Origin: Escherichia phage vB_EcoP_ZX5
Reading direction: 5' to 3' (one strand)
Length of the DNA: 39,565 nucleotides
Sequence record: MW722083.1
The notes beneath the pieces were generated by a model. The model did no database searches and had not been told where the DNA came from. It saw only the letters and a program-made list of their open reading frames with translations. Both the position numbers and the translations under genes were made by a program. Positions within the stretch are counted from its first letter, which is position 1, and each line of letters opens with the position of its first letter. Shown in pieces: positions 1-39,565 of this stretch.

Positions 1-61
1 AGGCCTGAGTTGAAGCTACCAGAGACAACAAAACGAACAGTGCAGCAAATGCTTTTTTCAT
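1..61 (-). CDS. 5' end of a small secreted-protein ORF (signal peptide MKKAFAALFVLLSLVASTQA); runs off the left edge and is in frame with 39465..39565 if the window is circular
   Basis: ATG at 61..59 on the minus strand; KK n-region, hydrophobic core and A-x-A type cleavage motif; weak Shine-Dalgarno. Confidence 0.3.
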   Translation of the reverse strand, partial: MKKAFAALFVLLSLVASTQA

Positions 62-130
62 TGTGAAATTTCCATCTATAAGCCACCTCAATGTGGCGTC
101 AATGAGTGTAGCACTGACTTTTGTTTCGTC

Positions 131-165
131 CATAAAAAAGCCCTCAGTGCGGGCTTACTTTTCTT
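131..165 (-). terminator. intrinsic terminator closing the leftward ant/accessory operon
   Basis: 6-bp stem 138-143/151-156 with 7-nt loop; A-run 134-139 gives a U-run on the minus strand; overlaps the stop codon of 155..703. Confidence 0.5.
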
Positions 166-703
166 CAGGTTTGTTGTCTTCAGATTTCTTCTTGATGCTT
201 GGTTTTTGTCTAAGAACGAAAATACCAGCCACTGCAACAACTGTACCGATCACTGTGCCAGCTAGAACTTCATGACCTGTTAAACCTAATAATGTTGCAC
301 AAGCTACTGTAAAAATAGTTGCACTCAGGCCAAACCGCTGCCCACGTTTATCTCTATTAATAGCCCCGTCAAGTGCCTTTTCCTCCATTTTCTGGCGGTG
401 AGCAAACTCCTTCTCCGTCAGCTGGAAGATGCGTTCGGGGGCATCAGGTAAAATATCCTGATACCCGCGAAGCAGATAGGGGGGAGGAAGCGGACCCTGA
501 AACGCATGGTGAGCGACAACTATCTCCTGAATTTCAGGGCGATCAAGAACTCTTGTGAAGGCATCTGGGTGTTGAATGATCTCGTTACTTAGCCCTTCCT
601 CAACTTCCTCGAACTCAGTTTCTTCGTTATCACTTGGTTGCCCAATAGATTTTTGCATATTTGTCGAAGGACATTCCTTTAGCTTCTGGTTTTCCTCTTG
701 CAT
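155..703 (-). CDS. membrane protein, DUF2335-like (acidic N-terminus, GPLPPPYLLRGYQDILPDAPERI motif, two C-terminal TM helices)
   Basis: 182-aa ORF; SD-like AGGGAA upstream of ATG 703; motif recalled from DUF2335, not searched; start at internal Met 658 is possible. Confidence 0.55.
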   Translation of the reverse strand: MQEENQKLKECPSTNMQKSIGQPSDNEETEFEEVEEGLSNEIIQHPDAFTRVLDRPEIQEIVVAHHAFQGPLPPPYLLRGYQDILPDAPERIFQLTEKEFAHRQKMEEKALDGAINRDKRGQRFGLSATIFTVACATLLGLTGHEVLAGTVIGTVVAVAGIFVLRQKPSIKKKSEDNKPEEK

Positions 704-956
704 TTGAGTTTTTCCCTGTCACTATTGCCCATTTTCCGCCAGCAGGCGCTGCAATTTTTTTTCCGTTCTTTACTATATATTCAGCATAAACACGATTTTC
801 TGACCGTCTGAGATCGTCTCCGACCATATTCATGTCTCTTGATATAACTTTGACGACAGAGTCTCGGTTTAAAGCCTTGGCATAGTTGGAGCCAGGAACG
901 ATACCCAAAGGGGTGCCAGACTCTATAGCCAGCTCCTTGACATATCTTCTGCTCAT
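630..956 (-). CDS. small basic hypothetical protein, first gene of a two-gene cassette
   Basis: 108-aa ORF from ATG 956 with GAGG SD 5 nt upstream; the track's longer start at 971 is TTG; overlaps the downstream gene by 74 nt. Confidence 0.5.
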   Translation of the reverse strand: MSRRYVKELAIESGTPLGIVPGSNYAKALNRDSVVKVISRDMNMVGDDLRRSENRVYAEYIVKNGKKIAAPAGGKWAIVTGKNSNARGKPEAKGMSFDKYAKIYWATK

Positions 957-977
957 ATGAACCTCAACCAATCGACT

Positions 978-1077: not shown

Positions 1078-1773
1078 TCAGAAGAACCCTGCTTTGTCGT
1101 TGATGTACTCCGCGTGCGTCTGGATATCACGCAGGCATTTGCTCACACCGACGATGTAGCAGAACATGGTGGTCAGCTCCGCCGCCGCGCCCGATACGTC
1201 GTGCCCGTCTTCCTGTAACTGGTTCAGCAGATTCATCAGCAGTGAGTTCTCCGTCAGGCCGAGAACACCAGACGGCGAATGAATCAGGCTGCGGTAGCCG
1301 GGCTTCAGCGGGGCGCTGTAGGTTTTGTTCTCTATCTTCATCGCCTGCATTACTGCTGACGCCGTGGCGTTGGCTACCTGGTCGGCAACCATCTTTATGC
1401 GTTCTTCCTGCGGGAGCGAGTTTTTAATGTAACTTCCGGTGCGGCGGATCTGAGGAAGAACCTCACCTGTAACCCATTTACGAAAGCGGTAGGGGATAGT
1501 GCCTGGTGTCACTGCGTCGCGGCAGCGGAGGATCAGTGTGTAGAGGCCTGACTCGGAGATGATGATCGATTCTTGCTCACCGCCAGGGGTGTCGGTTGAA
1601 GCGACGCCCTTCTCATCATCATCAAGTTTTCGAACAGCATCTCGATGGTTTGCTATGCCTATAGCCCGACAAACATCTGAAGCGATAAACCATGGCTCAC
1701 CATTAATGACGATTACCCGTATATCGGCTTGGGATTCGAAAGAAAAAATGGACGTGCTTTTTGTAGCTGTCAT
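1078..1773 (-). CDS. ant: antirepressor (Bro-N type N-terminal domain plus Ant-type C-terminal domain)
   Basis: 231-aa ORF; N-terminus FSFESQADIRVIVINGEPWFIASDVCRAIG resembles Bro-N; AAGGTAA SD before ATG 1773. Confidence 0.8.
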   Translation of the reverse strand: MTATKSTSIFSFESQADIRVIVINGEPWFIASDVCRAIGIANHRDAVRKLDDDEKGVASTDTPGGEQESIIISESGLYTLILRCRDAVTPGTIPYRFRKWVTGEVLPQIRRTGSYIKNSLPQEERIKMVADQVANATASAVMQAMKIENKTYSAPLKPGYRSLIHSPSGVLGLTENSLLMNLLNQLQEDGHDVSGAAAELTTMFCYIVGVSKCLRDIQTHAEYINDKAGFF

Positions 1774-2541: not shown

Positions 2542-5500
2542 ATGACGGTCTCAACCGAAGTTGACCACAACGAATACACCGGTAACGGCGTTACGACATC
2601 GTTTCCGTATACTTTTCGAATTTTCAGAAAATCAGACCTGGTTGTTCAGGTGTCTGACCTGAACGGGAACGTAACAGAATTGGTTCTGGATACCGGTTAT
2701 ACGGTAACTGGGGCGGGCACTTATAGTGGCGGTTCTGTGGTTCTTCCGTCTCCGCTTGCTACTGGATGGCGAATTACGATAGATCGTGTGCTTGATGTAG
2801 TGCAGGAGACAGACCTTCGCAATCAGGGAAAATTTTTCCCCGAAGTGCATGAAGATGCCTTTGACTACCTGACGATGCTGATCCAGCAATGTTTTGGGTG
2901 GTTCAGACGTGCATTGATGAAACCATCTTTGCTTGCAAAATATTACGATGCAAAGCAAAACAAAATTTCTAACCTTGCAGATCCATCATTTGAGCAGGAC
3001 GCTGTAAATAATCGCTCAATGCGTAATTATGTCGATGCTGCAATCGCCGGGGTTGTTGGTGGTTTTGGTTGGTTTATTCAGTATGGTTCTGGGGCTGTGT
3101 ACCGAACGTTCCAGGATAAAATGCGTGATGCTATTAGCCCCAAAGATTTTGGAGCTGTTGGTGATGGTATAAATGACGATTCCACTGCAATAAGCGCGTG
3201 CCTTGAAGCCTCATCTCCAGGTTATAAAATTGACGGATTAGGGCTTACTTTTAAAGTATCAACTCTTCCGGATGTCAGTCGATTTAAAAATGCTCGTTTT
3301 TTATTTGAGAGAATACCGGGCCAGCCTCTTTTTTATGCTTCTGAAGATTTTATCCAGGGAGAGTTATTTAAAATTACAGATACACCGTGGTACAACGCCT
3401 GGACGCAGGATAAAACGTTTGTATATGACAATGTCATCTATGCGCCTTTTATGGCTGGAGACCGCCATGGTGTAAATAACCTCCATGTTGCATGGGTTCG
3501 CTCAGGAGATGACGGGAAGACCTGGACAACGCCGGAATGGCTTACAGATTTACATGAAAACTATCCCACAGTTAACTATCACTGTATGAGTATGGGGGTT
3601 GTCAGAAATCGCCTTTTTGCTGTAATTGAGACGCGGACCGTGAGAGGAAATAAACTGCAGGTTGCAGAGTTGTGGGATCGCCCAATGAGTCGCAGCCTTC
3701 GCGTTTATGGTGGTATAACGAAAGCAGCAAATCAGCAAGTCGCTTATATTCGCATTACTGATCACGGATTATTTGCTGGTGATTTTGTCAACTTCTCAAA
3801 CTCTGGTGTTACAGGTGTTACCGGGAATATGACGGTGACTACTGTTATTGATAAAAATACTTTTACAGTTACGACGCAAAATACCCAGGATGTGGATCAG
3901 AATAACGAGGGTAGATACTGGAGTTTTGGTACATCATTTCACTCGTCACCATGGAGAAAAACCAGTCTTGGAACTATTCCTTCTTTTGTTGACGGAAGCA
4001 CTCCTGTTACTGAGATTCACAGTTTTGCGACGATTAGCGATAACAGTTTTGCTGTTGGCTACCATAATGGTGATATTGGTCCACGCGAGCTTGGGATACT
4101 CTATTTCTCTGATGCTTTCGGTTCTCCTGGTAGCTTTGTTCGCAGACGCATACCTGCAGAATATGAGGCGAATGCATCTGAGCCATGTGTAAAATATTAT
4201 GATGGCATTCTGTATCTGACGACCAGGGGGACATTAAGTACTCAACCCGGTAGTTCATTGCACAGAAGCTCTGATTTAGGTACATCATGGAATTCTCTTC
4301 GCTTCCCAAATAATGTTCATCACTCAAACCTTCCTTTTGCCAAAGTTGGCGATGAGCTGATTATTTTTGGCAGTGAGCGCGCATTTGGTGAGTGGGAAGG
4401 AGGAGAACCTGATAACCGTTATGCAGGAAATTATCCAAGAACATTTATGACCAGAGTTAACGTCAATGAGTGGAGTCTGGATAATGTAGAGTGGGTTAAT
4501 GTTACTGATCAGATTTATCAGGGCGGAATAGTTAACTCTGCGGTTGGTGTTGGTTCAGTTTGTATCAAAGACAACTGGCTGTACTACATTTTCGGTGGGG
4601 AAGACTTTCTAAACCCATGGAGCATAGGGGATAACAACAGAAAATATCCTTATGTTCACGATGGTCACCCGGCTGATTTGTATTGTTTCAGGGTGAAAAT
4701 TAAACAGGAAGAATTTGTTTCAAGGGATTTTGTCTACGGAGCCACTCCTAACAGAACGCTTCCTACTTTTATGTCGACGTCAGGCGTGAGGACGGTTCCT
4801 GTACCCGTTGATTTCACAGATGATGTTGCCGTCCAGTCACTGACTGTCCATGCAGGTACATCAGGACAAGTTCGCGCGGAAGTCAAACTTGAGGGTAATT
4901 ACGCCATTATTGCGAAGAAAGTACCGTCTGATGATGTTACCGCTCAGAGATTAATCGTTAGCGGCGGTGAAACAACGTCTTCAGCAGATGGTGCAATGAT
5001 AACGTTGCATGGTTCCGGAAGCAGTACTCCACGTCGCGCGGTATATAACGCACTCGAACATCTTTTTGAGAACGGAGATGTTAAACCTTATCTTGATAAT
5101 GTAAATGCTCTTGGTGGTCCGGGAAACAGGTTCTCGACAGTTTATCTTGGCTCCAATCCTGTGGTTACCAGTGACGGAACATTAAAGACAGAGCCGGTCT
5201 CTCCTGACGAAGCATTGCTGGATGCCTGGGGTGACGTCAGGTATATCGCTTATAAATGGCTGAACGCTGTCGCTATAAAGGGGGAAGAAGGGGCGAGGAT
5301 ACATCATGGTGTAATCGCGCAGCAACTTCGTGATGTTCTTATTTCTCACGGACTCATGGAAGAAGAAAGCACAACATGCCGCTATGCCTTTCTTTGCTAT
5401 GACGATTATCCCGCAGTATATGATGACGTCATTACTGGCCAAAGGGAAATGCCGCTGACTGATAATGACGGGAGCATCATTGTTGATGAGGATGATAATC

Positions 5501-5661
5501 CAGTGATGGTAATGGAAGACATCATTGAGCGCGTTGAAATAACGCCAGCAGGATCTAGATGGGGGGTCAGACCTGATCTCTTATTCTATATCGAGGCAGC
5601 ATGGCAGCGCAGAGAAATGGATAAGATAAAAGAGCGGATTCAGTCTCTGGAAGAACGTTAA
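2542..5661 (+). CDS. tailspike: T7 gp17-like N-terminal anchor, pectate-lyase-like beta-helix signature, C-terminal S74-type intramolecular chaperone domain
   Basis: 1039-aa ORF with GGAGA SD; N-terminus GNGVTTSFPYTFRIFRKSDLVVQV; central DFGAVGDGINDDSTAI motif; C-terminal chaperone-like block. Confidence 0.85.
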   Translation: MTVSTEVDHNEYTGNGVTTSFPYTFRIFRKSDLVVQVSDLNGNVTELVLDTGYTVTGAGTYSGGSVVLPSPLATGWRITIDRVLDVVQETDLRNQGKFFPEVHEDAFDYLTMLIQQCFGWFRRALMKPSLLAKYYDAKQNKISNLADPSFEQDAVNNRSMRNYVDAAIAGVVGGFGWFIQYGSGAVYRTFQDKMRDAISPKDFGAVGDGINDDSTAISACLEASSPGYKIDGLGLTFKVSTLPDVSRFKNARFLFERIPGQPLFYASEDFIQGELFKITDTPWYNAWTQDKTFVYDNVIYAPFMAGDRHGVNNLHVAWVRSGDDGKTWTTPEWLTDLHENYPTVNYHCMSMGVVRNRLFAVIETRTVRGNKLQVAELWDRPMSRSLRVYGGITKAANQQVAYIRITDHGLFAGDFVNFSNSGVTGVTGNMTVTTVIDKNTFTVTTQNTQDVDQNNEGRYWSFGTSFHSSPWRKTSLGTIPSFVDGSTPVTEIHSFATISDNSFAVGYHNGDIGPRELGILYFSDAFGSPGSFVRRRIPAEYEANASEPCVKYYDGILYLTTRGTLSTQPGSSLHRSSDLGTSWNSLRFPNNVHHSNLPFAKVGDELIIFGSERAFGEWEGGEPDNRYAGNYPRTFMTRVNVNEWSLDNVEWVNVTDQIYQGGIVNSAVGVGSVCIKDNWLYYIFGGEDFLNPWSIGDNNRKYPYVHDGHPADLYCFRVKIKQEEFVSRDFVYGATPNRTLPTFMSTSGVRTVPVPVDFTDDVAVQSLTVHAGTSGQVRAEVKLEGNYAIIAKKVPSDDVTAQRLIVSGGETTSSADGAMITLHGSGSSTPRRAVYNALEHLFENGDVKPYLDNVNALGGPGNRFSTVYLGSNPVVTSDGTLKTEPVSPDEALLDAWGDVRYIAYKWLNAVAIKGEEGARIHHGVIAQQLRDVLISHGLMEEESTTCRYAFLCYDDYPAVYDDVITGQREMPLTDNDGSIIVDEDDNPVMVMEDIIERVEITPAGSRWGVRPDLLFYIEAAWQRREMDKIKERIQSLEER

Positions 5662-6667: not shown

Positions 6668-7286
6668 ACAATTCCAGCGAGCTGCTGGTATCAGCGAGGC
6701 ACTGGCCGCACGCTGGTTCTCGCATATAACTTCTGCGATGAAAGAGTTTGGTATCAGCAAAGCAGAAGATCAGGCAATGTTTATTGCTCAAGTCGGGCAT
6801 GAGTCTGGGGGCTTCACCAGGTTGCAGGAGAATTTCAACTACAGTGTCAGCGGACTGGCTAACTTCGTTCGGGCTGGGCGTCTCACTCAGGGGCAGGCTA
6901 ATGCACTGGGGCGCCGTGCTGGTGAACCACCATTGCCACTTGAGCGCCAGCGCGCGATCGCAAATCTGGTATACAGCAAACGCATGGGGAACAATGCCCC
7001 TGGTGATGGCTGGAATTACCGAGGGCGCGGACTTATCCAGATTACCGGTTTGAATAACTATCGTGATTGCGGAAACGGTCTGAAGGTTGACCTGCTGGAG
7101 AGCCCTGAACTGCTGGCGCAGGACGGATATGCGGCTCGTAGCGCGGCGTGGTTCTTCGCCAGCAAAGGATGCATGAAGTATACCGGCGATATTGCACGTG
7201 TAACTCTGATTATCAATGGTGGCCGGAACGGCATCGACGACCGGCGAGCGCGGTACATCACTGCCAGTAAGGTGCTGGCGGTATGA
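6657..7286 (+). CDS. endolysin, glycoside hydrolase family 19 (chitinase-like) type
   Basis: 209 aa from ATG 6657 with GAGGT SD; motifs [12 protein letters not shown] and [12 protein letters not shown]; the track start 6492 is an unsupported 5' extension. Confidence 0.85.
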
Positions 7287-7765: not shown

Positions 7766-7936
7766 CATGGCATTTTTCATGGTACTGATTTCCGGTGACG
7801 GTATATAAAACGGTACGGAAAAAATTGAGATTTGGAAAAATGTTATCACTCAATTGGTTATGGTTATCGTAAATAATTGAGTGGGAATGATTAACAGCTA
7901 ACTCATAGCAACTCATTCCTATTCAGATACTAATTT

Positions 7937-8082: not shown

Positions 8083-9333
8083 GTGCTTACCGATACAAAA
8101 TTAAAAAACCTCAAGCCGCAGGACAAACTGTACAAGGTCTCCGATCGTGACGGGCTGTATGTAGCTGTGCTTACGTCAGGTACGGTCTCGTTTCGCTATG
8201 ACTACCGTATCAACGGTCGCCGCGAAACACTGGTAATCGGGCAGTATGGGCGTGACGGTATCAGTCTGGCAGAAGCGCGAGAAGAACTGATTGCTGCAAA
8301 GAAGCTGCTTAAAGCAGGCCAGTCACCGGCTGCGGCTAAACGTGACGGTATCAAAAAGATTCGTGGTGCTGAGACGTTTGCGGTACATACCGACAGTTAT
8401 ATGAAACACGTCATCCTGGCTGACAGTACCCGCGCAATGAAGCAGGCGGTGATCGACCGTGACATACTTCCTGTTCTTGGCAACAAAATGATGGCTGAAA
8501 TTACCACATCGATGGTTCGTGATTTGTGTGACCGGATTGTCGAACGCGGTGGTCGGGCAACAGCAGTGCAGGCCAGGGAGATCATCAGCAGCGTATACCG
8601 TCACGCCAATGACCGTGGTCATGGTTTGTTTAATCCTGCGGCTGACATTAAACCTTCGTCTATCGCCATATTTAAACCACGAGAGCGAACACTGACACCA
8701 GAAGAAATTGGCCTGTTCTTCCGCACGCTGGATGCCATTGGTGCTATGGGCACTATGAAAATGGCTTTAAAGCTGGTGCTTATCACTATGGTTCGTAAAG
8801 GCGAATTCACCAATGCAACGTGGGACGAAATAGATTTTAAAAAATGGACATGGACAATTCCTTCAGACCGCATGAAGGGAAGCCGGGCGCACGTTATTTA
8901 CCTGCCTAAACAGGCACAGGATATATTGGTCGGGTTGCAGATGTGCGCTGGTGGAAGTGAATATCTGGTTCCTGGTCGTTACAACTTCCGGAAGCCATTA
9001 TCTAATGCCGCGCTGAACTCTCTGATCGACAGAACGGTGAAAATAATAAATGAAGATGGTGAGCATATTCAGGACTTCACTGTACATGATATGCGCCGTA
9101 CAGCCAGTACGTTGTTGCATGAGGCTGGTTATCCTTCAGACTGGATTGAAAAGGCTCTGGCACATGAGCAGAAAGGTGTGCGCGCCGTATATAACAAAGC
9201 GGAATACGCCAGACAGCGCGCCTACATGTTGCAGCAGTGGGCCGATATGATTGATTCCTGGATTAACGGGGAGCATACGGATCTGATTCCGTTCTCCCCG
9301 TCGAAGTTTGAGAAGTGGATGGCGGGGGAATAA
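8083..9333 (+). CDS. int: tyrosine integrase, P4-type
   Basis: 416-aa ORF with GTG start; N-terminus LTDTKLKNLKPQDKLYKVSDRDGLYVAV typical of P4-like integrases; C-terminal HxxR...Y catalytic region. Confidence 0.85.
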   Translation: MLTDTKLKNLKPQDKLYKVSDRDGLYVAVLTSGTVSFRYDYRINGRRETLVIGQYGRDGISLAEAREELIAAKKLLKAGQSPAAAKRDGIKKIRGAETFAVHTDSYMKHVILADSTRAMKQAVIDRDILPVLGNKMMAEITTSMVRDLCDRIVERGGRATAVQAREIISSVYRHANDRGHGLFNPAADIKPSSIAIFKPRERTLTPEEIGLFFRTLDAIGAMGTMKMALKLVLITMVRKGEFTNATWDEIDFKKWTWTIPSDRMKGSRAHVIYLPKQAQDILVGLQMCAGGSEYLVPGRYNFRKPLSNAALNSLIDRTVKIINEDGEHIQDFTVHDMRRTASTLLHEAGYPSDWIEKALAHEQKGVRAVYNKAEYARQRAYMLQQWADMIDSWINGEHTDLIPFSPSKFEKWMAGE

Positions 9334-14299: not shown

Positions 14300-14512
14300 T
14301 TGAAGATAGTAACCAGAATGGAGGCCGCAAAAGCCGGGTTAAATCGCTATTTCACAGGAAAGCGGTGCCGTCACGGCCATCTCTCTGAAAGGTATGTTCT
14401 GAACGGAACATGTGTTGAATGTGCAATGAATAGCGCCAACCGCCATCGTAATGAATTTGCTTGTGCACTAAAGAGTGCAAGAGGGGAAACCTATGGCAAG
14501 CAGCTGGATTAA
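14300..14512 (+). CDS. small Cys/His-rich (zinc-ribbon-like) protein
   Basis: CRHGH...CVEC motif; start uncertain (TTG 14300 with AAGGGG SD, or ATG 14318). Confidence 0.4.
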   Translation: MKIVTRMEAAKAGLNRYFTGKRCRHGHLSERYVLNGTCVECAMNSANRHRNEFACALKSARGETYGKQLD

Positions 14513-15323
14513 GGTTGAAGTTATCACTCCTGATAAACCTGAAATTTTTCAGATAGCAGAAATTCTGGGTATTGATCCAGATGCTGTTCTTGGAAAGCTG
14601 GTTCGTATATGGGCATGGGCTGACCAGCAAACAATAGACGGTAACGCTGGCAGCGTTACAAAAGGAGTACTTGATAGACTCGCTTTTATTACAGGATTTG
14701 CTGACGCCCTCATTAGCGTCGGATGGCTTGCTTATCATGACGGCAAACTAATTCTTCCAAACTTTGAGCGACATAATGGAGAATCATCGAAAAAACGTGC
14801 ACTTACGAATAGAAGAGTGGCAGAGCATCGAAAACGAGTAACGCAAAAAGTAACGCCAACAGCGTTACAAAAGGAGTTACCAGAGGAAGAGGAAGAGGAA
14901 GATATATATAAAACCCCACACATAGCGCACGTGCGCGAGGGTGCTCCGACTAGTGAAGCGAACAGTACGCCGTTGCAGGTGGCAGAACCTGAATTTCTGG
15001 ATGGCCTGAGTGAACCCATCGGGAAATTTCCGATGACAGATGGCTGGCTACCGTCGCCAGATTTTCGGCGGCGTGCTGCGCTGTGGGGAACGGCCCTGCC
15101 GGAACCGGAATTTACACCTGCTGAACTTGCTGCATTCCGGGATTACTGGATGGCTGAGGGCAAAGTGTTCACGCAGGTTCAGTGGGAACAAAAATTCGCC
15201 AGGCACGTAAATCATATCAGGGGAAAATCAAAAAATGCCGGGAAAAGCGATGAGCTTGACTGGAATAACACTGACTGGATAGAAGGGGTGTGGGATGAAA
15301 TCAACTCCAGAACTTCTCAATGA
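14493..15323 (+). CDS. replication initiator (lambda O-like by position)
   Basis: 276 aa from ATG 14493 with GAGGGG SD; acidic linker (EEEEEE) overlying a repeat block; directly upstream of the P-like gene. Confidence 0.55.
   Translation: MASSWIKVEVITPDKPEIFQIAEILGIDPDAVLGKLVRIWAWADQQTIDGNAGSVTKGVLDRLAFITGFADALISVGWLAYHDGKLILPNFERHNGESSKKRALTNRRVAEHRKRVTQKVTPTALQKELPEEEEEEDIYKTPHIAHVREGAPTSEANSTPLQVAEPEFLDGLSEPIGKFPMTDGWLPSPDFRRRAALWGTALPEPEFTPAELAAFRDYWMAEGKVFTQVQWEQKFARHVNHIRGKSKNAGKSDELDWNNTDWIEGVWDEINSRTSQ
14838..14936. other. candidate origin of replication inside the O-like gene
   Basis: GTAACGC x2 at 14838 and 14850 plus inverted GCGTTAC 14862; (GAGGAA)3 14883-14900; AT-rich GATATATATAAAA 14901-14913; palindrome GCGCACGTGCGC 14925-14936. 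Confidence 0.35.
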
Positions 15324-19538: not shown

Positions 19539-19546
19539 CATGTCAC
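19535..19546. repeat. 12-bp perfect palindrome GTGACATGTCAC (copy 1) overlapping the stop codon of 19200..19538
   Basis: exact match, one of three copies. Confidence 0.9.
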
Positions 19547-19587
19547 GAGTAGATTATGCATGATGAATTTGATGGGTTTTGAATACT

Positions 19588-19613
19588 GCCGCCAACTATG
19601 GCGGCTTTATTTT
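19588..19613 (+). terminator. intrinsic terminator between the early-right operon and terS
   Basis: 7-bp stem GCCGCCA/TGGCGGC, loop ACTA, then TTTATTTT. Confidence 0.7.
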
Positions 19614-19624
19614 GCATGGTACTA

Positions 19625-19639
19625 TTACCACAACGGTAA
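19625..19639. promoter_or_regulatory. palindromic operator-like site TTACCACAACGGTAA just upstream of terS
   Basis: perfect match inside a longer near-palindrome CATGGTACTATTACC...GGTAACTATTACCATG. Confidence 0.45.
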
Positions 19640-19647
19640 CTATTACC

Positions 19648-20253
19648 ATGGTGGTTATGATGCCTGCTGAACCTAAAACCTATAAACGCAAATCAACGCA
19701 ATTTAAGCCACTAACAGCAATGCAGGAGGCTTATTGCCAGTCATACATCAAAACGCCTGAAAACCAGACTCAGGCAGCGATTAACGCAGGATTCTCTCCA
19801 AATACAGCGGCAGTTAAAGCCAGTGTCATGATGCGCGATGAACGCATTCAAAAACGGATTGCCGAGTTGATGGAGGAGCGCAACAAACGAATGCGCGTCA
19901 GTGCCGATTACGTTCTCATGCGCCTGGTGGAGATCGACCAGATGGACGTGATTGATATCCTCAACGACGATGGGAGCCTTAAGCCAATCCGCGAGTGGCC
20001 GAAAATCTGGCGCACTACGCTTAGCGGCTTTGATCTGTCATCGACCATCATGAACATGAACGAGGATTCGATAGAGACAATCCTCAAAAAAATTAAATGG
20101 CCTGACAAGGTGAAGAACCTCGAACTGATTGGTAAGCACGTCGACGTCAACGCATTCAAAGAACGCCTGGATGTTAATGTGAATGTGACAATTGCTGATC
20201 GCATAGCGGCAGCCAGGAAGCGACTCAAAGAACGTCAGGATGGTAATCAGTGA
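19648..20253 (+). CDS. terS: terminase small subunit
   Basis: 201 aa from ATG 19648; the track start 19579 would span a terminator and operator; position immediately before the large subunit. Confidence 0.7.
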   Translation: MVVMMPAEPKTYKRKSTQFKPLTAMQEAYCQSYIKTPENQTQAAINAGFSPNTAAVKASVMMRDERIQKRIAELMEERNKRMRVSADYVLMRLVEIDQMDVIDILNDDGSLKPIREWPKIWRTTLSGFDLSSTIMNMNEDSIETILKKIKWPDKVKNLELIGKHVDVNAFKERLDVNVNVTIADRIAAARKRLKERQDGNQ

Positions 20254-22170: not shown

Positions 22171-22193
22171 AAAAAATGCCCGGCGAACCGGGC
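22171..22193 (-). terminator. terminator-like hairpin immediately upstream of the moron RBS
   Basis: 6-bp stem GCCCGG/CCGGGC 22178-22183/22188-22193, loop CGAA; A6 on plus gives U6 on minus. Confidence 0.45.
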
Positions 22194-22270
22194 GAACTGG
22201 AGGCAATGAGTTATGCCTCCCGTGGCTGTACTGGTTTACAGCATGAAGTCATCGCAATGGCGTCCTGCTG

Positions 22271-22313
22271 TAAAAATGGCGGTGATAGTCCTTCAAGGGA
22301 AACCATCACCGCC
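22271..22313 (-). terminator. tRNA-trailer terminator-like hairpin
   Basis: 8-bp stem GGCGGTGA/TCACCGCC 22278-22285/22306-22313 with 20-nt loop; A-run 22272-22276 on plus gives U-run on minus. Confidence 0.4.
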
Positions 22314-22356
22314 AAGCCCCTGGAACTTCTGGCATCACGGTCCTTAGGCGTGATTC

Positions 22357-22433
22357 TGGCGTGGCATGCAGGATTCGAACCTGCGACCAACCGCTTAGAA
22401 GGCGGTTGCTCTGTCCAGCTGAGCTAATGCCAC
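22357..22433 (-). tRNA. tRNA-Arg (anticodon UCU), CCA encoded
   Basis: 77 nt; acceptor GTGGCAT/ATGCCAC, D-arm GCTC...GAGC, anticodon arm ACCGC-CTTCTAA-GCGGT, T-arm GCAGG-TTCGAAT-CCTGC, discriminator G, CCA. Confidence 0.85.
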
Positions 22434-36358: not shown

Positions 36359-38833
36359 ATGAGACAGGAATGTATACAAGCGGTTCAGCAGGCGGCGCAG
36401 CGCATGTTAACGGCGCGAGAAATACAGAACATTGAAGACCGCATTTATCGAAATATGCGCTCCATTGCTCGTGATGACCCTATGTCGTGGCGACAACTTT
36501 CCGAATCAGAGCGGCTATATCGAGCAGCACAATTGGCATCTGAAGAATTACAGCGAGAAGCGGCATTAAAGAAACGTCGTGTGGCCCTCACTATAGCCGC
36601 ACGTCAGAGATTGGATAAATTTATCAATAGCTATCAAGGGGCTGATGGGAAACTTGGCGCTCTTAACCGTACTATTGCTTTTAATGCAGACGGTAAATCG
36701 AATTTCCTCTCTGTTGAATCCAGAACAAAAGCCACTCGTGATTATGCATTGAGTCAATTGCAGGAGGCATTTGAAGCAGTTGATCCTCGCTTTTTTGGCC
36801 TGTTTGAAGATGAAGCTGGCGTGCGTGACCTGGTATATGAAATGCGAGGGCAAAATACTGGCAATGCTAAAGCAAGAAAAGGTGCTAAGGCGTGGAGAGA
36901 AGTGACAGAGCTACTGCGCCGCCGGTTTAATGATGCTGGTGGGGACATTGGCTATCTCGAAAACTGGGGGCTCCCTCAACATCATTCTATGGAAAAGGTT
37001 GGGGCGGTATCAAAGGATAAGTGGGTTAGCGATGTTATAGGTAAGCTGGATCGCAAATATTATACCCGAGTCGATGGACAACTGATGAACGATGCCGAGT
37101 TGTCTGCATTTCTTGGAGAGGCTTATAACACGATCGCTACTGGTGGGCTGAATAAGCTTACTGATACCGGAATGCGAATTTCCGGCGCACGTGCTAACCG
37201 GGGTAATGCATCACGACAGATACATTTCAAAGATGCAGATTCCTATCTGCAATATCAGCAACTTTATGGCGATCGCTCTCTATGGGAAATCATGGTCGGT
37301 CACCTGGAAGGTATCAGTAAAGATATTGCACTGGTGGAAACATATGGCCCAAACCCCGATCATGTTTTCCGCTCTCTTCTTGATCAGGTGAAGGCAGAAA
37401 CGGCAACAGCTAACCCGAGTAAAACCGGTAAAGTCGAGCGGCTGGCGAACAACACAGAGAATCTGTACAACTTTATTTCCGGAAAGACACAGCCTGTAGC
37501 GAATCCGCACATCGCGCGATGGTCTGACAATATCCGCAACTGGCTGGTTGCCAGCAGACTCGGATCCGCGTTGCTGTCATCGTTCTCTGATCTTGGAACC
37601 ATGTATCTGTCTGCGAAGGTTACCAACCTTCCAATGAACCAGTTATTCCGCAACCAGCTTGAAGCTATGGACCCAACGAACCGTACAGAACTTGCGCGGG
37701 CGCGCCGCGCTGGTCTGGCGATGGAATCTCTACTTGGCAGCGTTAACCGCTGGGCGATGGATAATATGGGGCCGTCTGTGTCTCGTTGGGCTGCAACGGC
37801 GGTAATGCGTGCCAGTGGGCTTACAGCATGGTCAGATGCGCACAAGCGCGCCTATGGCGTAACCATGATGGGAAGCCTGGGAGAAGTAGTGTCACGGACA
37901 CCAGACCTTCGTAGCCTCGATGATTCTGATTTTCGTATCCTGAAAAGCAAAGGGATTACTGACACAGACTGGAGCGTATGGAAGCTGGCGCAACAGGAGG
38001 ACTGGGGGAACGGTAATAATACGATGCTGACACCGGAAAGCATTATGCGTATCCCTGATTCAGCAGTTAAACATCTTGGTGAGCCTGAACGCGTGAAATT
38101 TGAGGCAATGCGTAAACTGCTCGGTGCCGTAACTGAAGAAGTTGATATGGCTGTTATTACACCGGGTGCACGTGAGCAACTGATAACCGGTTCTGGTATT
38201 CAGCGTGGAACATGGAAAGGTGAATTAACGAGAAGTGTTTTCCTGTTTAAATCGTTCCCTATCTCGGTGGTTATGCGTCACTGGTCACGCGCTATGGGTA
38301 TGCCGTCGGCTGGTGGGCGTGCGGCATATATTGCGACGTTTATTGCCAGTACGACCATTCTTGGCGCTTTGTCGCAGCAACTTAACGACCTTGCGTCTGG
38401 TCGTAATCCTCGCGAGATGACAGGAGAAGATGCTGCTAAATTTTGGCTTGGTGCTCTACTGAAAGGTGGTGGTCTTGGCCTTTACGGTGACTTTTTATTG
38501 TCAGATCACACTAGGTACGGAAGCGGCGCGCTGGCGTCGATGCTTGGCCCGGTAGCTGGTCTGGTTGATGACGTAGTGAAGATTGCTCAGGGCATACCGT
38601 TAAATGCTGTGGAAGGGAAGAATGAGCAGACTGGTGGTGATCTGGTTAAGCTGGGGAAAGGTCTGATGCCAGGTGCGAATCTCTGGTACTTAAAGGCGGC
38701 TCTCGATCACATGATCTTTAACCAGATGCAGGAGTATTTTTCACCAGGCTATTTGCGTAAAATGGAGCAACGTTCGAAGAAAGAGTTTAACCAGACATAC
38801 TGGTGGCGACCACAGGATGTCACTCCGCAATAA
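36359..38833 (+). CDS. large internal virion / ejection protein
   Basis: 824-aa ORF, last large gene of the late operon. Confidence 0.6.
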   Translation: MRQECIQAVQQAAQRMLTAREIQNIEDRIYRNMRSIARDDPMSWRQLSESERLYRAAQLASEELQREAALKKRRVALTIAARQRLDKFINSYQGADGKLGALNRTIAFNADGKSNFLSVESRTKATRDYALSQLQEAFEAVDPRFFGLFEDEAGVRDLVYEMRGQNTGNAKARKGAKAWREVTELLRRRFNDAGGDIGYLENWGLPQHHSMEKVGAVSKDKWVSDVIGKLDRKYYTRVDGQLMNDAELSAFLGEAYNTIATGGLNKLTDTGMRISGARANRGNASRQIHFKDADSYLQYQQLYGDRSLWEIMVGHLEGISKDIALVETYGPNPDHVFRSLLDQVKAETATANPSKTGKVERLANNTENLYNFISGKTQPVANPHIARWSDNIRNWLVASRLGSALLSSFSDLGTMYLSAKVTNLPMNQLFRNQLEAMDPTNRTELARARRAGLAMESLLGSVNRWAMDNMGPSVSRWAATAVMRASGLTAWSDAHKRAYGVTMMGSLGEVVSRTPDLRSLDDSDFRILKSKGITDTDWSVWKLAQQEDWGNGNNTMLTPESIMRIPDSAVKHLGEPERVKFEAMRKLLGAVTEEVDMAVITPGAREQLITGSGIQRGTWKGELTRSVFLFKSFPISVVMRHWSRAMGMPSAGGRAAYIATFIASTTILGALSQQLNDLASGRNPREMTGEDAAKFWLGALLKGGGLGLYGDFLLSDHTRYGSGALASMLGPVAGLVDDVVKIAQGIPLNAVEGKNEQTGGDLVKLGKGLMPGANLWYLKAALDHMIFNQMQEYFSPGYLRKMEQRSKKEFNQTYWWRPQDVTPQ

Positions 38834-39052: not shown

Positions 39053-39433
39053 ATGAGAAAAGTATTTTTGATTTTTGGATTTATGCTTCTCGTTGGATGC
39101 CAGTCAGCTGCACAGTTTGAAAGAAATATGCTTACGTGGCGCGGGCAGAGTATAGACGCAATGGTTCAGCAGTGGGGGTATCCTCAGGGAGAGCTTACAT
39201 CTCCAGATGGAAACAGAGTGTATGTTTACTCAAGCTCTGGTAGTTATAACGTACCACAAACCACAACGTATAATACTACGTCTAATCTAATTGGTAATAC
39301 TATATATTCAAACACATACGCAACAACTGATGGCGGTTATACACTCCATTTCAGTTGCTCTGTTTACGTTGAGTTTGGTGCTGATAAGATTATTAAAAAT
39401 GTTACATGGCGCGGTAATAATTGCGTTGCGTGA
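39053..39433 (+). CDS. lipoprotein, candidate superinfection-exclusion or surface-modifying moron
   Basis: MRKVFLIFGFMLLVGC signal peptide with lipobox; AT-rich relative to neighbours; followed by a terminator. Confidence 0.65.
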   Translation: MRKVFLIFGFMLLVGCQSAAQFERNMLTWRGQSIDAMVQQWGYPQGELTSPDGNRVYVYSSSGSYNVPQTTTYNTTSNLIGNTIYSNTYATTDGGYTLHFSCSVYVEFGADKIIKNVTWRGNNCVA

Positions 39434-39441
39434 CATGTCAC
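39430..39441. repeat. 12-bp perfect palindrome GTGACATGTCAC (copy 3) overlapping the lipoprotein stop codon
   Basis: exact match; abuts the terminator hairpin. Confidence 0.9.
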
Positions 39442-39467
39442 AGGCCGCTTTCGCGGCCTTGTTTTTA
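39442..39467 (+). terminator. intrinsic terminator after the lipoprotein gene
   Basis: 7-bp stem AGGCCGC/GCGGCCT with loop TTTC, then TGTTTTTA. Confidence 0.7.
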
Positions 39468-39565
39468 ACGAATGCCACCGCCACCCGGGCGGGAATCCGC
39501 AGAACGCCCACCGCAGCGGGAGCCGTCAGCGGCAGTATCGCTGTCGTGCTGACAACGACCGGCAA
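39465..39565 (-). CDS. possible 3' part of the junction-spanning secreted-peptide ORF (valid only if window end joins window start)
   Basis: frame continuous with 1..61 across the ends; stop TAA at 39467..39465 next to the convergent terminator. Confidence 0.25.
   Translation of the reverse strand, partial: AGRCQHDSDTAADGSRCGGRSADSRPGGGGIR

Follow-up and report, generated by a model that had tools for sequence, protein, structure and literature searches.

Two terminal open reading frames of the Escherichia phage vB_EcoP_ZX5 record read as a single 53-codon accessory gene

Morons are accessory genes with their own promoter and terminator that sit in the late-gene regions of temperate phages, lom and bor of lambda being examples. 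The closest described relatives of the genome analyzed here, that of vB_EcoP_ZX5, are the phages of the phiV10/epsilon15 group (Uetakevirus; TL-2011b, phiv142-3 and the O157 typing phages 9 and 10), to which most of its sequence is 95-98% identical at the nucleotide level; gene order, attP core and the guaA integration site are shared as well. For the small gene that is the subject of this work, the closest described family is PHROG 14503, named 'membrane associated protein' in PHROG and 'transmembrane anchored protein' by NCBI (WP_000708858.1, TL-2011b); the family is already named. The ZX5 product has 98-100% identity to E. coli prophage proteins of this family and is like them in its signal-like N-terminus, its two cysteines, its C-terminal core and its genome position. 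Nothing of substance sets the ZX5 gene apart from PHROG 14503, the ZX5 copy simply being cut by the ends of the sequence record.

vB_EcoP_ZX5 (MW722083) has been described as a temperate E. coli phage of 39,565 bp, phiV10-like and belonging to the genus Uetakevirus (PMC9782041). We analyzed the whole stretch of 39,565 nucleotides, referred to here as the window. The coordinates of Table S2 of the published report are the same as those of the window (ORF2 658..155, ORF4 1773..1078, ORF7 2542..5661, ORF12 8083..9333 and ORF52 39053..39433; PMC9782041), and 19 of the 22 published primer sequences were found at the expected window sites. phiV10 matches 96% of the structural half (98.3% identity) and 57% of the other half (95.5% identity). 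Two differences stand out: phiV10 lacks the accessory-gene cluster discussed below, having only a terminator at that place, and the ZX5 tailspike, unlike that of the phiV10 group, is an endosialidase. The tailspike gene (2542-5661, plus strand) encodes End_N_terminal, beta-propeller, beta-barrel and tail-spike domains and a Peptidase_S74 chaperone, with E-values down to 6.5e-233; this full endosialidase tailspike indicates that ZX5 is a K1-capsule-specific temperate phiV10-like podovirus, a capsule specificity that is likewise stated in the original description (PMC9782041). ARAGORN placed a tRNA-Arg (anticodon TCT) at 22357-22433 on the minus strand, a feature given as complement 14482..14558 in the text of the paper (PMC9782041); since the offset is exactly 7875, the published number must have been counted from the attP core, which makes a second numbering origin. 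The plus-strand ORF36 of the published table (22176..22427) covers part of the tRNA from the other strand and was probably called in error.

The initial annotation had proposed that the window is circularly permuted and that one small gene for an exported peptide is divided between its two ends. The parts of this gene and the features next to its stop codon are the following.

1..61, minus strand: 5' part of the split gene, with codons 1-20 (MKKAFAALFVLLSLVASTQA) and the first base of codon 21
39465..39565, minus strand: 3' part of the split gene, with bases 2 and 3 of codon 21, codons 22-53 and the stop codon TAA at 39467..39465
39442..39459, plus strand: terminator hairpin of the convergent lipoprotein gene, AGGCCGC-TTTC-GCGGCCT followed by TGTTTTT
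39053..39433, plus strand: putative lipoprotein, published ORF52, with lipobox LLVG-C and N-terminus MRKVFLIFGFMLLVG-C; PHROG 3716

On the minus strand, the ATG at 61..59 opens the first of these parts, and the frame, followed to the left edge, leaves a single base over at position 1. Joining the end of the window to its start (61..1 followed by 39565..39465, minus strand) restores a 53-codon gene with the product MKKAFAALFVLLSLVASTQAFAGRCQHDSDTAADGSRCGGRSADSRPGGGGIR (53 aa). Codon 21 straddles the join, position 1 and bases 39565-39564 together reading TTT (Phe21), and the record start falls between its first and second base; after it come 32 further codons and the TAA. Translation of the join agreed with every coordinate that the initial annotation had given for this gene, namely the minus-strand frame leaving the left edge from 61, its in-frame continuation from the right edge and its stop at 39467..39465. 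The stop was also said to adjoin the terminator hairpin of the convergent lipoprotein gene, and the two are indeed 6 nt apart. The 5' part agrees with the first 20 residues both of PHROG 14503 and of 53-aa homologues and lies inside published ORF1 (133..2), and the 3' part carries the two-cysteine core and equals published ORF53 (39563..39465). An open frame alone is not significant here, because a run of 33 open codons is met at about a third of arbitrary points in the window (32-38% of points and frames); at the right end, one more minus-strand frame is open (ORF 39308..39565). Homology across the join, rather than the open frame, is what we take to be decisive for the reality of the split gene.

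With an 800-nt query made of the last 400 nt and the first 400 nt of the window, single-piece alignments (800/800 nt at 99.0% identity) were obtained in five complete E. coli chromosomes, and many further chromosomes as well as several phage records also span the join. A shorter query of 202 nt, centred on the join and scored as contiguous when at least 80% of it was covered, was contiguous in 422 of 5,426 complete E. coli genomes, among them strain KC-Dl-1 with 100% identity over all 202 nt, and in eight Escherichia phage records with 99-99.5% identity. TL-2011b is one of these eight, and its feature is annotated 'putative transmembrane anchored protein'; the prophage of E. coli DLL7555 carries the gene as an intact 162-nt sequence that RefSeq annotates as WP_000708858.1. 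The join appears in independent relatives without indels. As judged by sequence comparison, these alignments demonstrate that the two ends of the window are contiguous in nature, and they bear out the circular permutation of the sequence record. In the ZX5 isolate itself, contiguity rests on the near-identical relatives together with integration via attP, which needs a circular intermediate and has been shown for ZX5 (PMC9782041). Terminal redundancy, which the initial annotation had named as something to look for, did not appear: the two window ends share no prefix or suffix of 8-400 nt. Such an overlap at contig ends, frequent in circular assemblies, is usually trimmed by assemblers or depositors, and its absence does not define circularity.

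The joined ORF aligned with PHROG 14503 over positions 1-53 of 53 (E 2.3e-40), and 57 homologue clusters cover both halves, many of them being exactly 50-55 aa long. C25, D30, A32, G35-C38, G40-S42 and D44-G49 are invariant or nearly so (alignments A1 and A3), and the N-terminal hydrophobic segment is followed by a conserved C-x12-C core (...DGSRCGGRSADSRPGG). The mature part is nearly invariant among E. coli, Klebsiella, Cronobacter, Pectobacterium and Dickeya. Over the 20 codons of the core DTAADGSRCGGRSADSRPGG, the pooled pS was 0.70 and the pooled pN 0.033 (pN/pS about 0.05), values that point to strong purifying selection on the protein sequence of the core.

The N-terminus of the product is of the signal type, with MKK, then AFAALFVLLSLVA, then A20-F21-A22|G23. 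A hydrophobic segment spans residues 1-21, and the basic n-region, the hydrophobic h-region and the small -3/-1 residues of a Sec signal peptide can all be recognized in the sequence. A cleavage pattern [A/V/S]-x-A|G, which here falls after Ala22, is kept across homologues (alignment A1), and Thr18-Gln19-Ala20 is not conserved as a cleavage site. Because of this conserved pattern and of the -3/-1 rule, the mature peptide is more likely to have 31 aa (GRCQ...) than 33 aa. Hence, of the 53-aa pre-peptide with a two-Cys mature part put forward in the initial annotation, the total length stands, as full-length 53-aa homologues exist, and the 33-aa mature part gives way to the shorter one. A Sec-type signal peptide would probably be cleaved after Ala22, releasing a peptide of about 31 aa to the periplasm. 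We rejected a lipoprotein reading of the small peptide, in which no lipobox is present: compared with the lipobox L-[AS]-[GA]-C, A22-G23-R24-C25 has one residue parting Gly23 from Cys25, and R or N stands between Gly and Cys in nearly all homologues. AlphaFold2, used with a 19-sequence alignment, modelled with confidence only an N-terminal helix at residues 2-22, and pLDDT in the mature part was 41-59. Cys25 and Cys38 would close a 12-residue Asp/Ser-rich loop; we conjecture that this loop might be held by a disulfide and might give the small peptide a binding function.

Which ATG starts the gene bears on whether the product is exported or anchored, and the sequence upstream of position 61 contains the following features.

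82..97, minus strand: short GC-rich hairpin GCCAC-ATTGAG-GTGGC in the presumed 5' leader, 3' of the TACACT hexamer
105..110, minus strand: candidate -10 hexamer TACACT, its TAnnnT invariant in the 16-sequence upstream alignment
138..156, minus strand: intrinsic terminator of the upstream DUF2335 gene, its T-tract running into the ATG at 133
155-703, minus strand: DUF2335 membrane protein, upstream of the small gene

In 16 of 17 Enterobacterales loci a TAnnnT lies 45-55 nt before the ATG. The leader hairpin is found at the same place in most relatives, the evidence here being the weaker kind of single-sequence folds and inspection by eye, and its arms carry compensating changes (GCCAC/GTGGC, GCCGC/GCGGC, CCACC/GGTGG and TTGCC/GGCAA; loci L003-L019). 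Sixteen of the 17 Enterobacterales loci have kept both the TAnnnT and a short hairpin, at 25-55 nt before the start codon. The promoter scanner called no consensus promoter upstream of the small gene, and RNAalifold returned no consensus structure on the 16 upstream regions, in which MAFFT had misaligned the short hairpin arms. A hand-picked promoter, TTGACG-16-TATAGA (minus strand, about 98-71), was discarded, as its sequence runs into the hairpin and relatives do not share it. From the conservation pattern, TACACT and the hairpin are probably the small gene's own sigma-70 promoter and 5' stem-loop. The DUF2335 ORF, taken from its first ATG (155-703), overlaps the next upstream ORF (630-971, minus strand) by 74 nt; its start is set at 658 in the published table (PMC9782041), as opposed to a longer form in RefSeq for the relative.

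The alternative that survives best concerns this start codon. Translation from the ATG at 133, which is in frame with the split gene, would add 24 cytoplasmic residues at the N-terminus, for a protein of 77 aa in all, and its membrane anchor would stay uncleaved. Such a protein would suit the NCBI name 'transmembrane anchored protein'; some automatic gene calls of 71-77 aa agree with it (P0001, P0003 and P0004), and in longer members of the family the motif does come after a true transmembrane helix. Against this, (i) the ATG at 133 lies within the T-tract of the terminator of the upstream DUF2335 gene, (ii) genera differ in the 24-aa extension and agree in MKK and the hydrophobic core, (iii) the conserved TAnnnT and hairpin would fall inside the supposed extension, in the 72 nt between the two ATGs, and (iv) both RefSeq and PHROG 14503 use the 53-aa form. 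We consider the longer protein very unlikely and retain the ATG at 61.

Still less probable, in our judgement, is that the record ends are the true physical ends of the virion DNA, with a fixed terminus within the gene, which would become whole only once the genome is circularised in the cell. We found nothing positive in favor of this possibility. Packaging sites are normally at or near the small terminase gene, and that gene (19579-20253) lies about 20 kb from the record start; the phiV10 record begins at window position 19539, at the small terminase gene. In addition, no terminal repeat or cohesive-end signature is visible in the window. A literature search on the genome ends of phiV10/epsilon15-like phages returned no paper. 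An arbitrary record start is usual when short reads of permuted or concatemeric DNA are assembled, and the start of the ZX5 record is arbitrary in just the way expected for a short-read assembly of phage DNA.

The initial annotation had also allowed for host flanks, that is, for the window being a prophage cut from a chromosome whose end ORFs run on into unrelated host genes. The features that bear on this point are located well inside the window.

7876..7892, plus strand: attP core ATTGAGTGGGAATGATT, 17 bp, the same as the last codons of host guaA and unique in the window
8083..9333, plus strand: tyrosine integrase (published ORF12) with Pfam Arm-DNA-bind_3, Phage_int_M and Phage_integrase

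The core has the lysis cassette on one side and on the other the integrase gene, which begins 190 bp downstream, and the same core at the same distance 5' of the integrase gene has been reported for ZX5 (PMC9782041). In a junction alignment with the DLL7555 prophage, which is inserted between guaA and yfgI at the guaA 3' end, the 17-bp core is found in the window as well as in both attL and attR; on its left side the window sequence agrees with the phage arm of attR, and on its right side with that of attL. The intact core at 7876-7892, flanked by attR- and attL-type arms, upholds the proposal of an integrase beside attP in a phage-form genome. As both arms are of the phage type, the window is the excised phage form and neither of its edges is host DNA; the same junction comparison detected no host sequence in the window beyond the attP core. 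In DLL7555 the region equivalent to the window ends sits contiguous in the middle of the prophage, the guaA/yfgI junctions being about 8 kb away, and the window ends are for this reason not att sites. The missing terminal repeat is the one observation that would suit host flanks, and it is set against the intact attP with both phage arms inside the window, the position of the junctions in the integrated relative, the contiguity of the join in the 422 E. coli genomes and the source of the sequenced DNA, which was purified phage (PMC9782041). Host flanks are excluded by the intact attP and by the presence of the join inside prophages, and we give this explanation practically no credence.

Equally negligible is the published model of two independent small genes, in which Table S2 lists ORF1 (133..2, minus strand, 132 bp) and ORF53 (39563..39465, minus strand, 99 bp) separately, each as 'hypothetical protein' (PMC9782041), since ORF1 has no stop codon inside the record, ORF53 begins with GCC though the table gives ATG as its start, the two share the frame of the joined gene with only the straddling codon 21 left out, and each homologue is a single protein spanning both parts.

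The overall explanation that we favor, and hold to be very probably right, is that the window is the complete excised ZX5 genome, whose arbitrary start splits a real 53-codon accessory gene. ZX5 would accordingly be represented by a complete unit-length genome in the attP-bearing form of a temperate phiV10/epsilon15-like podovirus, which the assembler would have linearised at an arbitrary point inside codon 21, so that the left end holds a 5' fragment lacking a stop codon and the right end a 3' fragment lacking a start codon. On the reading of the joined sequence, ORF1 and ORF53 are one 53-codon gene starting at 61, and the genome has 52 protein-coding genes, not 53.

The small gene lies between the gene for the last internal virion protein (36359-38833) and the genes for the BRO-N anti-repressor and the endosialidase tailspike. 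It is transcribed against the late operon and has terminators on both sides, the one at 39442-39459 being conserved in relatives. Other small accessory genes are found nearby, namely those for the lipoprotein (PHROG 3716), the DUF2335 membrane protein and a member of PHROG 10654. GC content is 0.69 in the part coding for the mature peptide, as compared with 0.40-0.45 in the neighboring genes and 0.49 in the genome. In phiV10/epsilon15-like prophages of Klebsiella and Cronobacter the small gene occupies the same slot with other neighbors, and in a Pectobacterium genome it lies beside other phage-type genes, for a tail-tip protein and a MuF_C-domain protein. With phage morons the ZX5 gene has in common a small exported product (predicted here), an orientation against the late operon, flanking terminators, a deviant GC content and presence or absence among otherwise near-identical phages; it differs in that its own promoter is inferred only from conservation. 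Taken together, the setting fits that of a mobile moron, which would occupy a variable slot with the internal virion protein genes on one side and the anti-repressor and tailspike genes on the other, flanked by two terminators and probably equipped with its own sigma-70 promoter and 5' stem-loop.

Next to the small gene, the slot of the Klebsiella locus (L003) holds at 6711-7094 a gene for a Rap1a-domain protein, which is type VI secretion immunity-like; the slot may thus be one that gathers cargo related to the envelope or to defence. Directly next to the terminator hairpin, and overlapping the ORF52 stop codon TGA, is a perfect palindrome of 12 bp at 39430-39441 (GTGACATGTCAC). The Klebsiella (L003) and Cronobacter (L005) loci have retained it despite a different adjacent gene; it might be a site of protein binding or recombination at the edge of the accessory slot.

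Relatives of the core extend well beyond these phages. When the profile was run against 1.8 billion representative proteins, 368 matches reached E <= 0.001; these matches and a separate genome scan place core relatives in Enterobacterales and also in Rhizobiales, cyanobacteria, Vibrio, Bacteriovorax and other groups (proteins P0059-P0203; loci L020-L063). The consensus of the core, of about 28 aa, is G-x-C-x4-D-x-A-x-DGSRCG-x-R-[SA]-[AS]-x-x-RPGG, and in nearly all relatives examined it comes after a hydrophobic segment. The core can stand alone as a peptide, follow a membrane helix as a C-terminal tail, or form an N-terminal ectodomain ahead of a membrane helix and a cytoplasmic part; fusion to a membrane helix, on either side, is frequent. 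The module of about 28 aa is sometimes present twice in a protein. Around the distant chromosomal homologues the neighbors (LysR, NHL, ImpA_N) are not phage genes and form no consistent context. One match of 805 aa (P0167) is a chitin-binding repeat protein and was set aside as a false positive of the profile.

Database searches matched the core to no described domain. The small peptide had no Pfam match even at E <= 1, Pfam scans of 20 longer motif-bearing proteins yielded no shared partner domain and no model on the motif, and NCBIfam and PDB sequence searches with the peptide or profile recovered no relative; the weak NCBIfam rows for HxsA3 and MarB (E 0.07-0.16) were far below the cut-offs and were dismissed. 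A literature search on the protein family (PHROG 14503/'transmembrane anchored protein') found nothing useful. The Excalibur calcium-binding domain (PF05901), with DxDxDGxxCE, bears some resemblance to D-x-A-x-DGSRCG: each is a small two-cysteine module outside the cytoplasm whose Asp-rich stretch ends in DG-x-x-C, and they differ in cysteine spacing. Membership of PF05901 was rejected on the Pfam result at E <= 1, and calcium binding by the ZX5 peptide would be speculation.

Lysogeny by ZX5 was reported to have no effect on growth, biofilm, stress response, antibiotic sensitivity, adhesion or virulence (PMC9782041), so that no phenotype can be linked to any of the accessory genes. Our best guess for the physiological role of the small gene is an envelope-acting function expressed in the lysogen.

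As a finding on the record, the split gene is an ordinary one, an artefact in an already published phage that matters as a small annotation correction. The gene stands in the deposited annotation as two separately counted fragments, and the record nowhere gives the full 53-aa product; those who use MW722083 for comparing gene content, or who work with re-circularised phage genomes, should rotate the start out of the gene. The wider interest lies in the two-cysteine core, which has no domain model and is widespread and strongly conserved. It is tempting to speculate, as a tentative and somewhat doubtful possibility, that this core is an undescribed extracytoplasmic mini-domain whose free-standing phage form acts as a lysogenic-conversion peptide on the cell envelope. 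If this were true, the peptide could bind a metal or an envelope component, or block superinfection.
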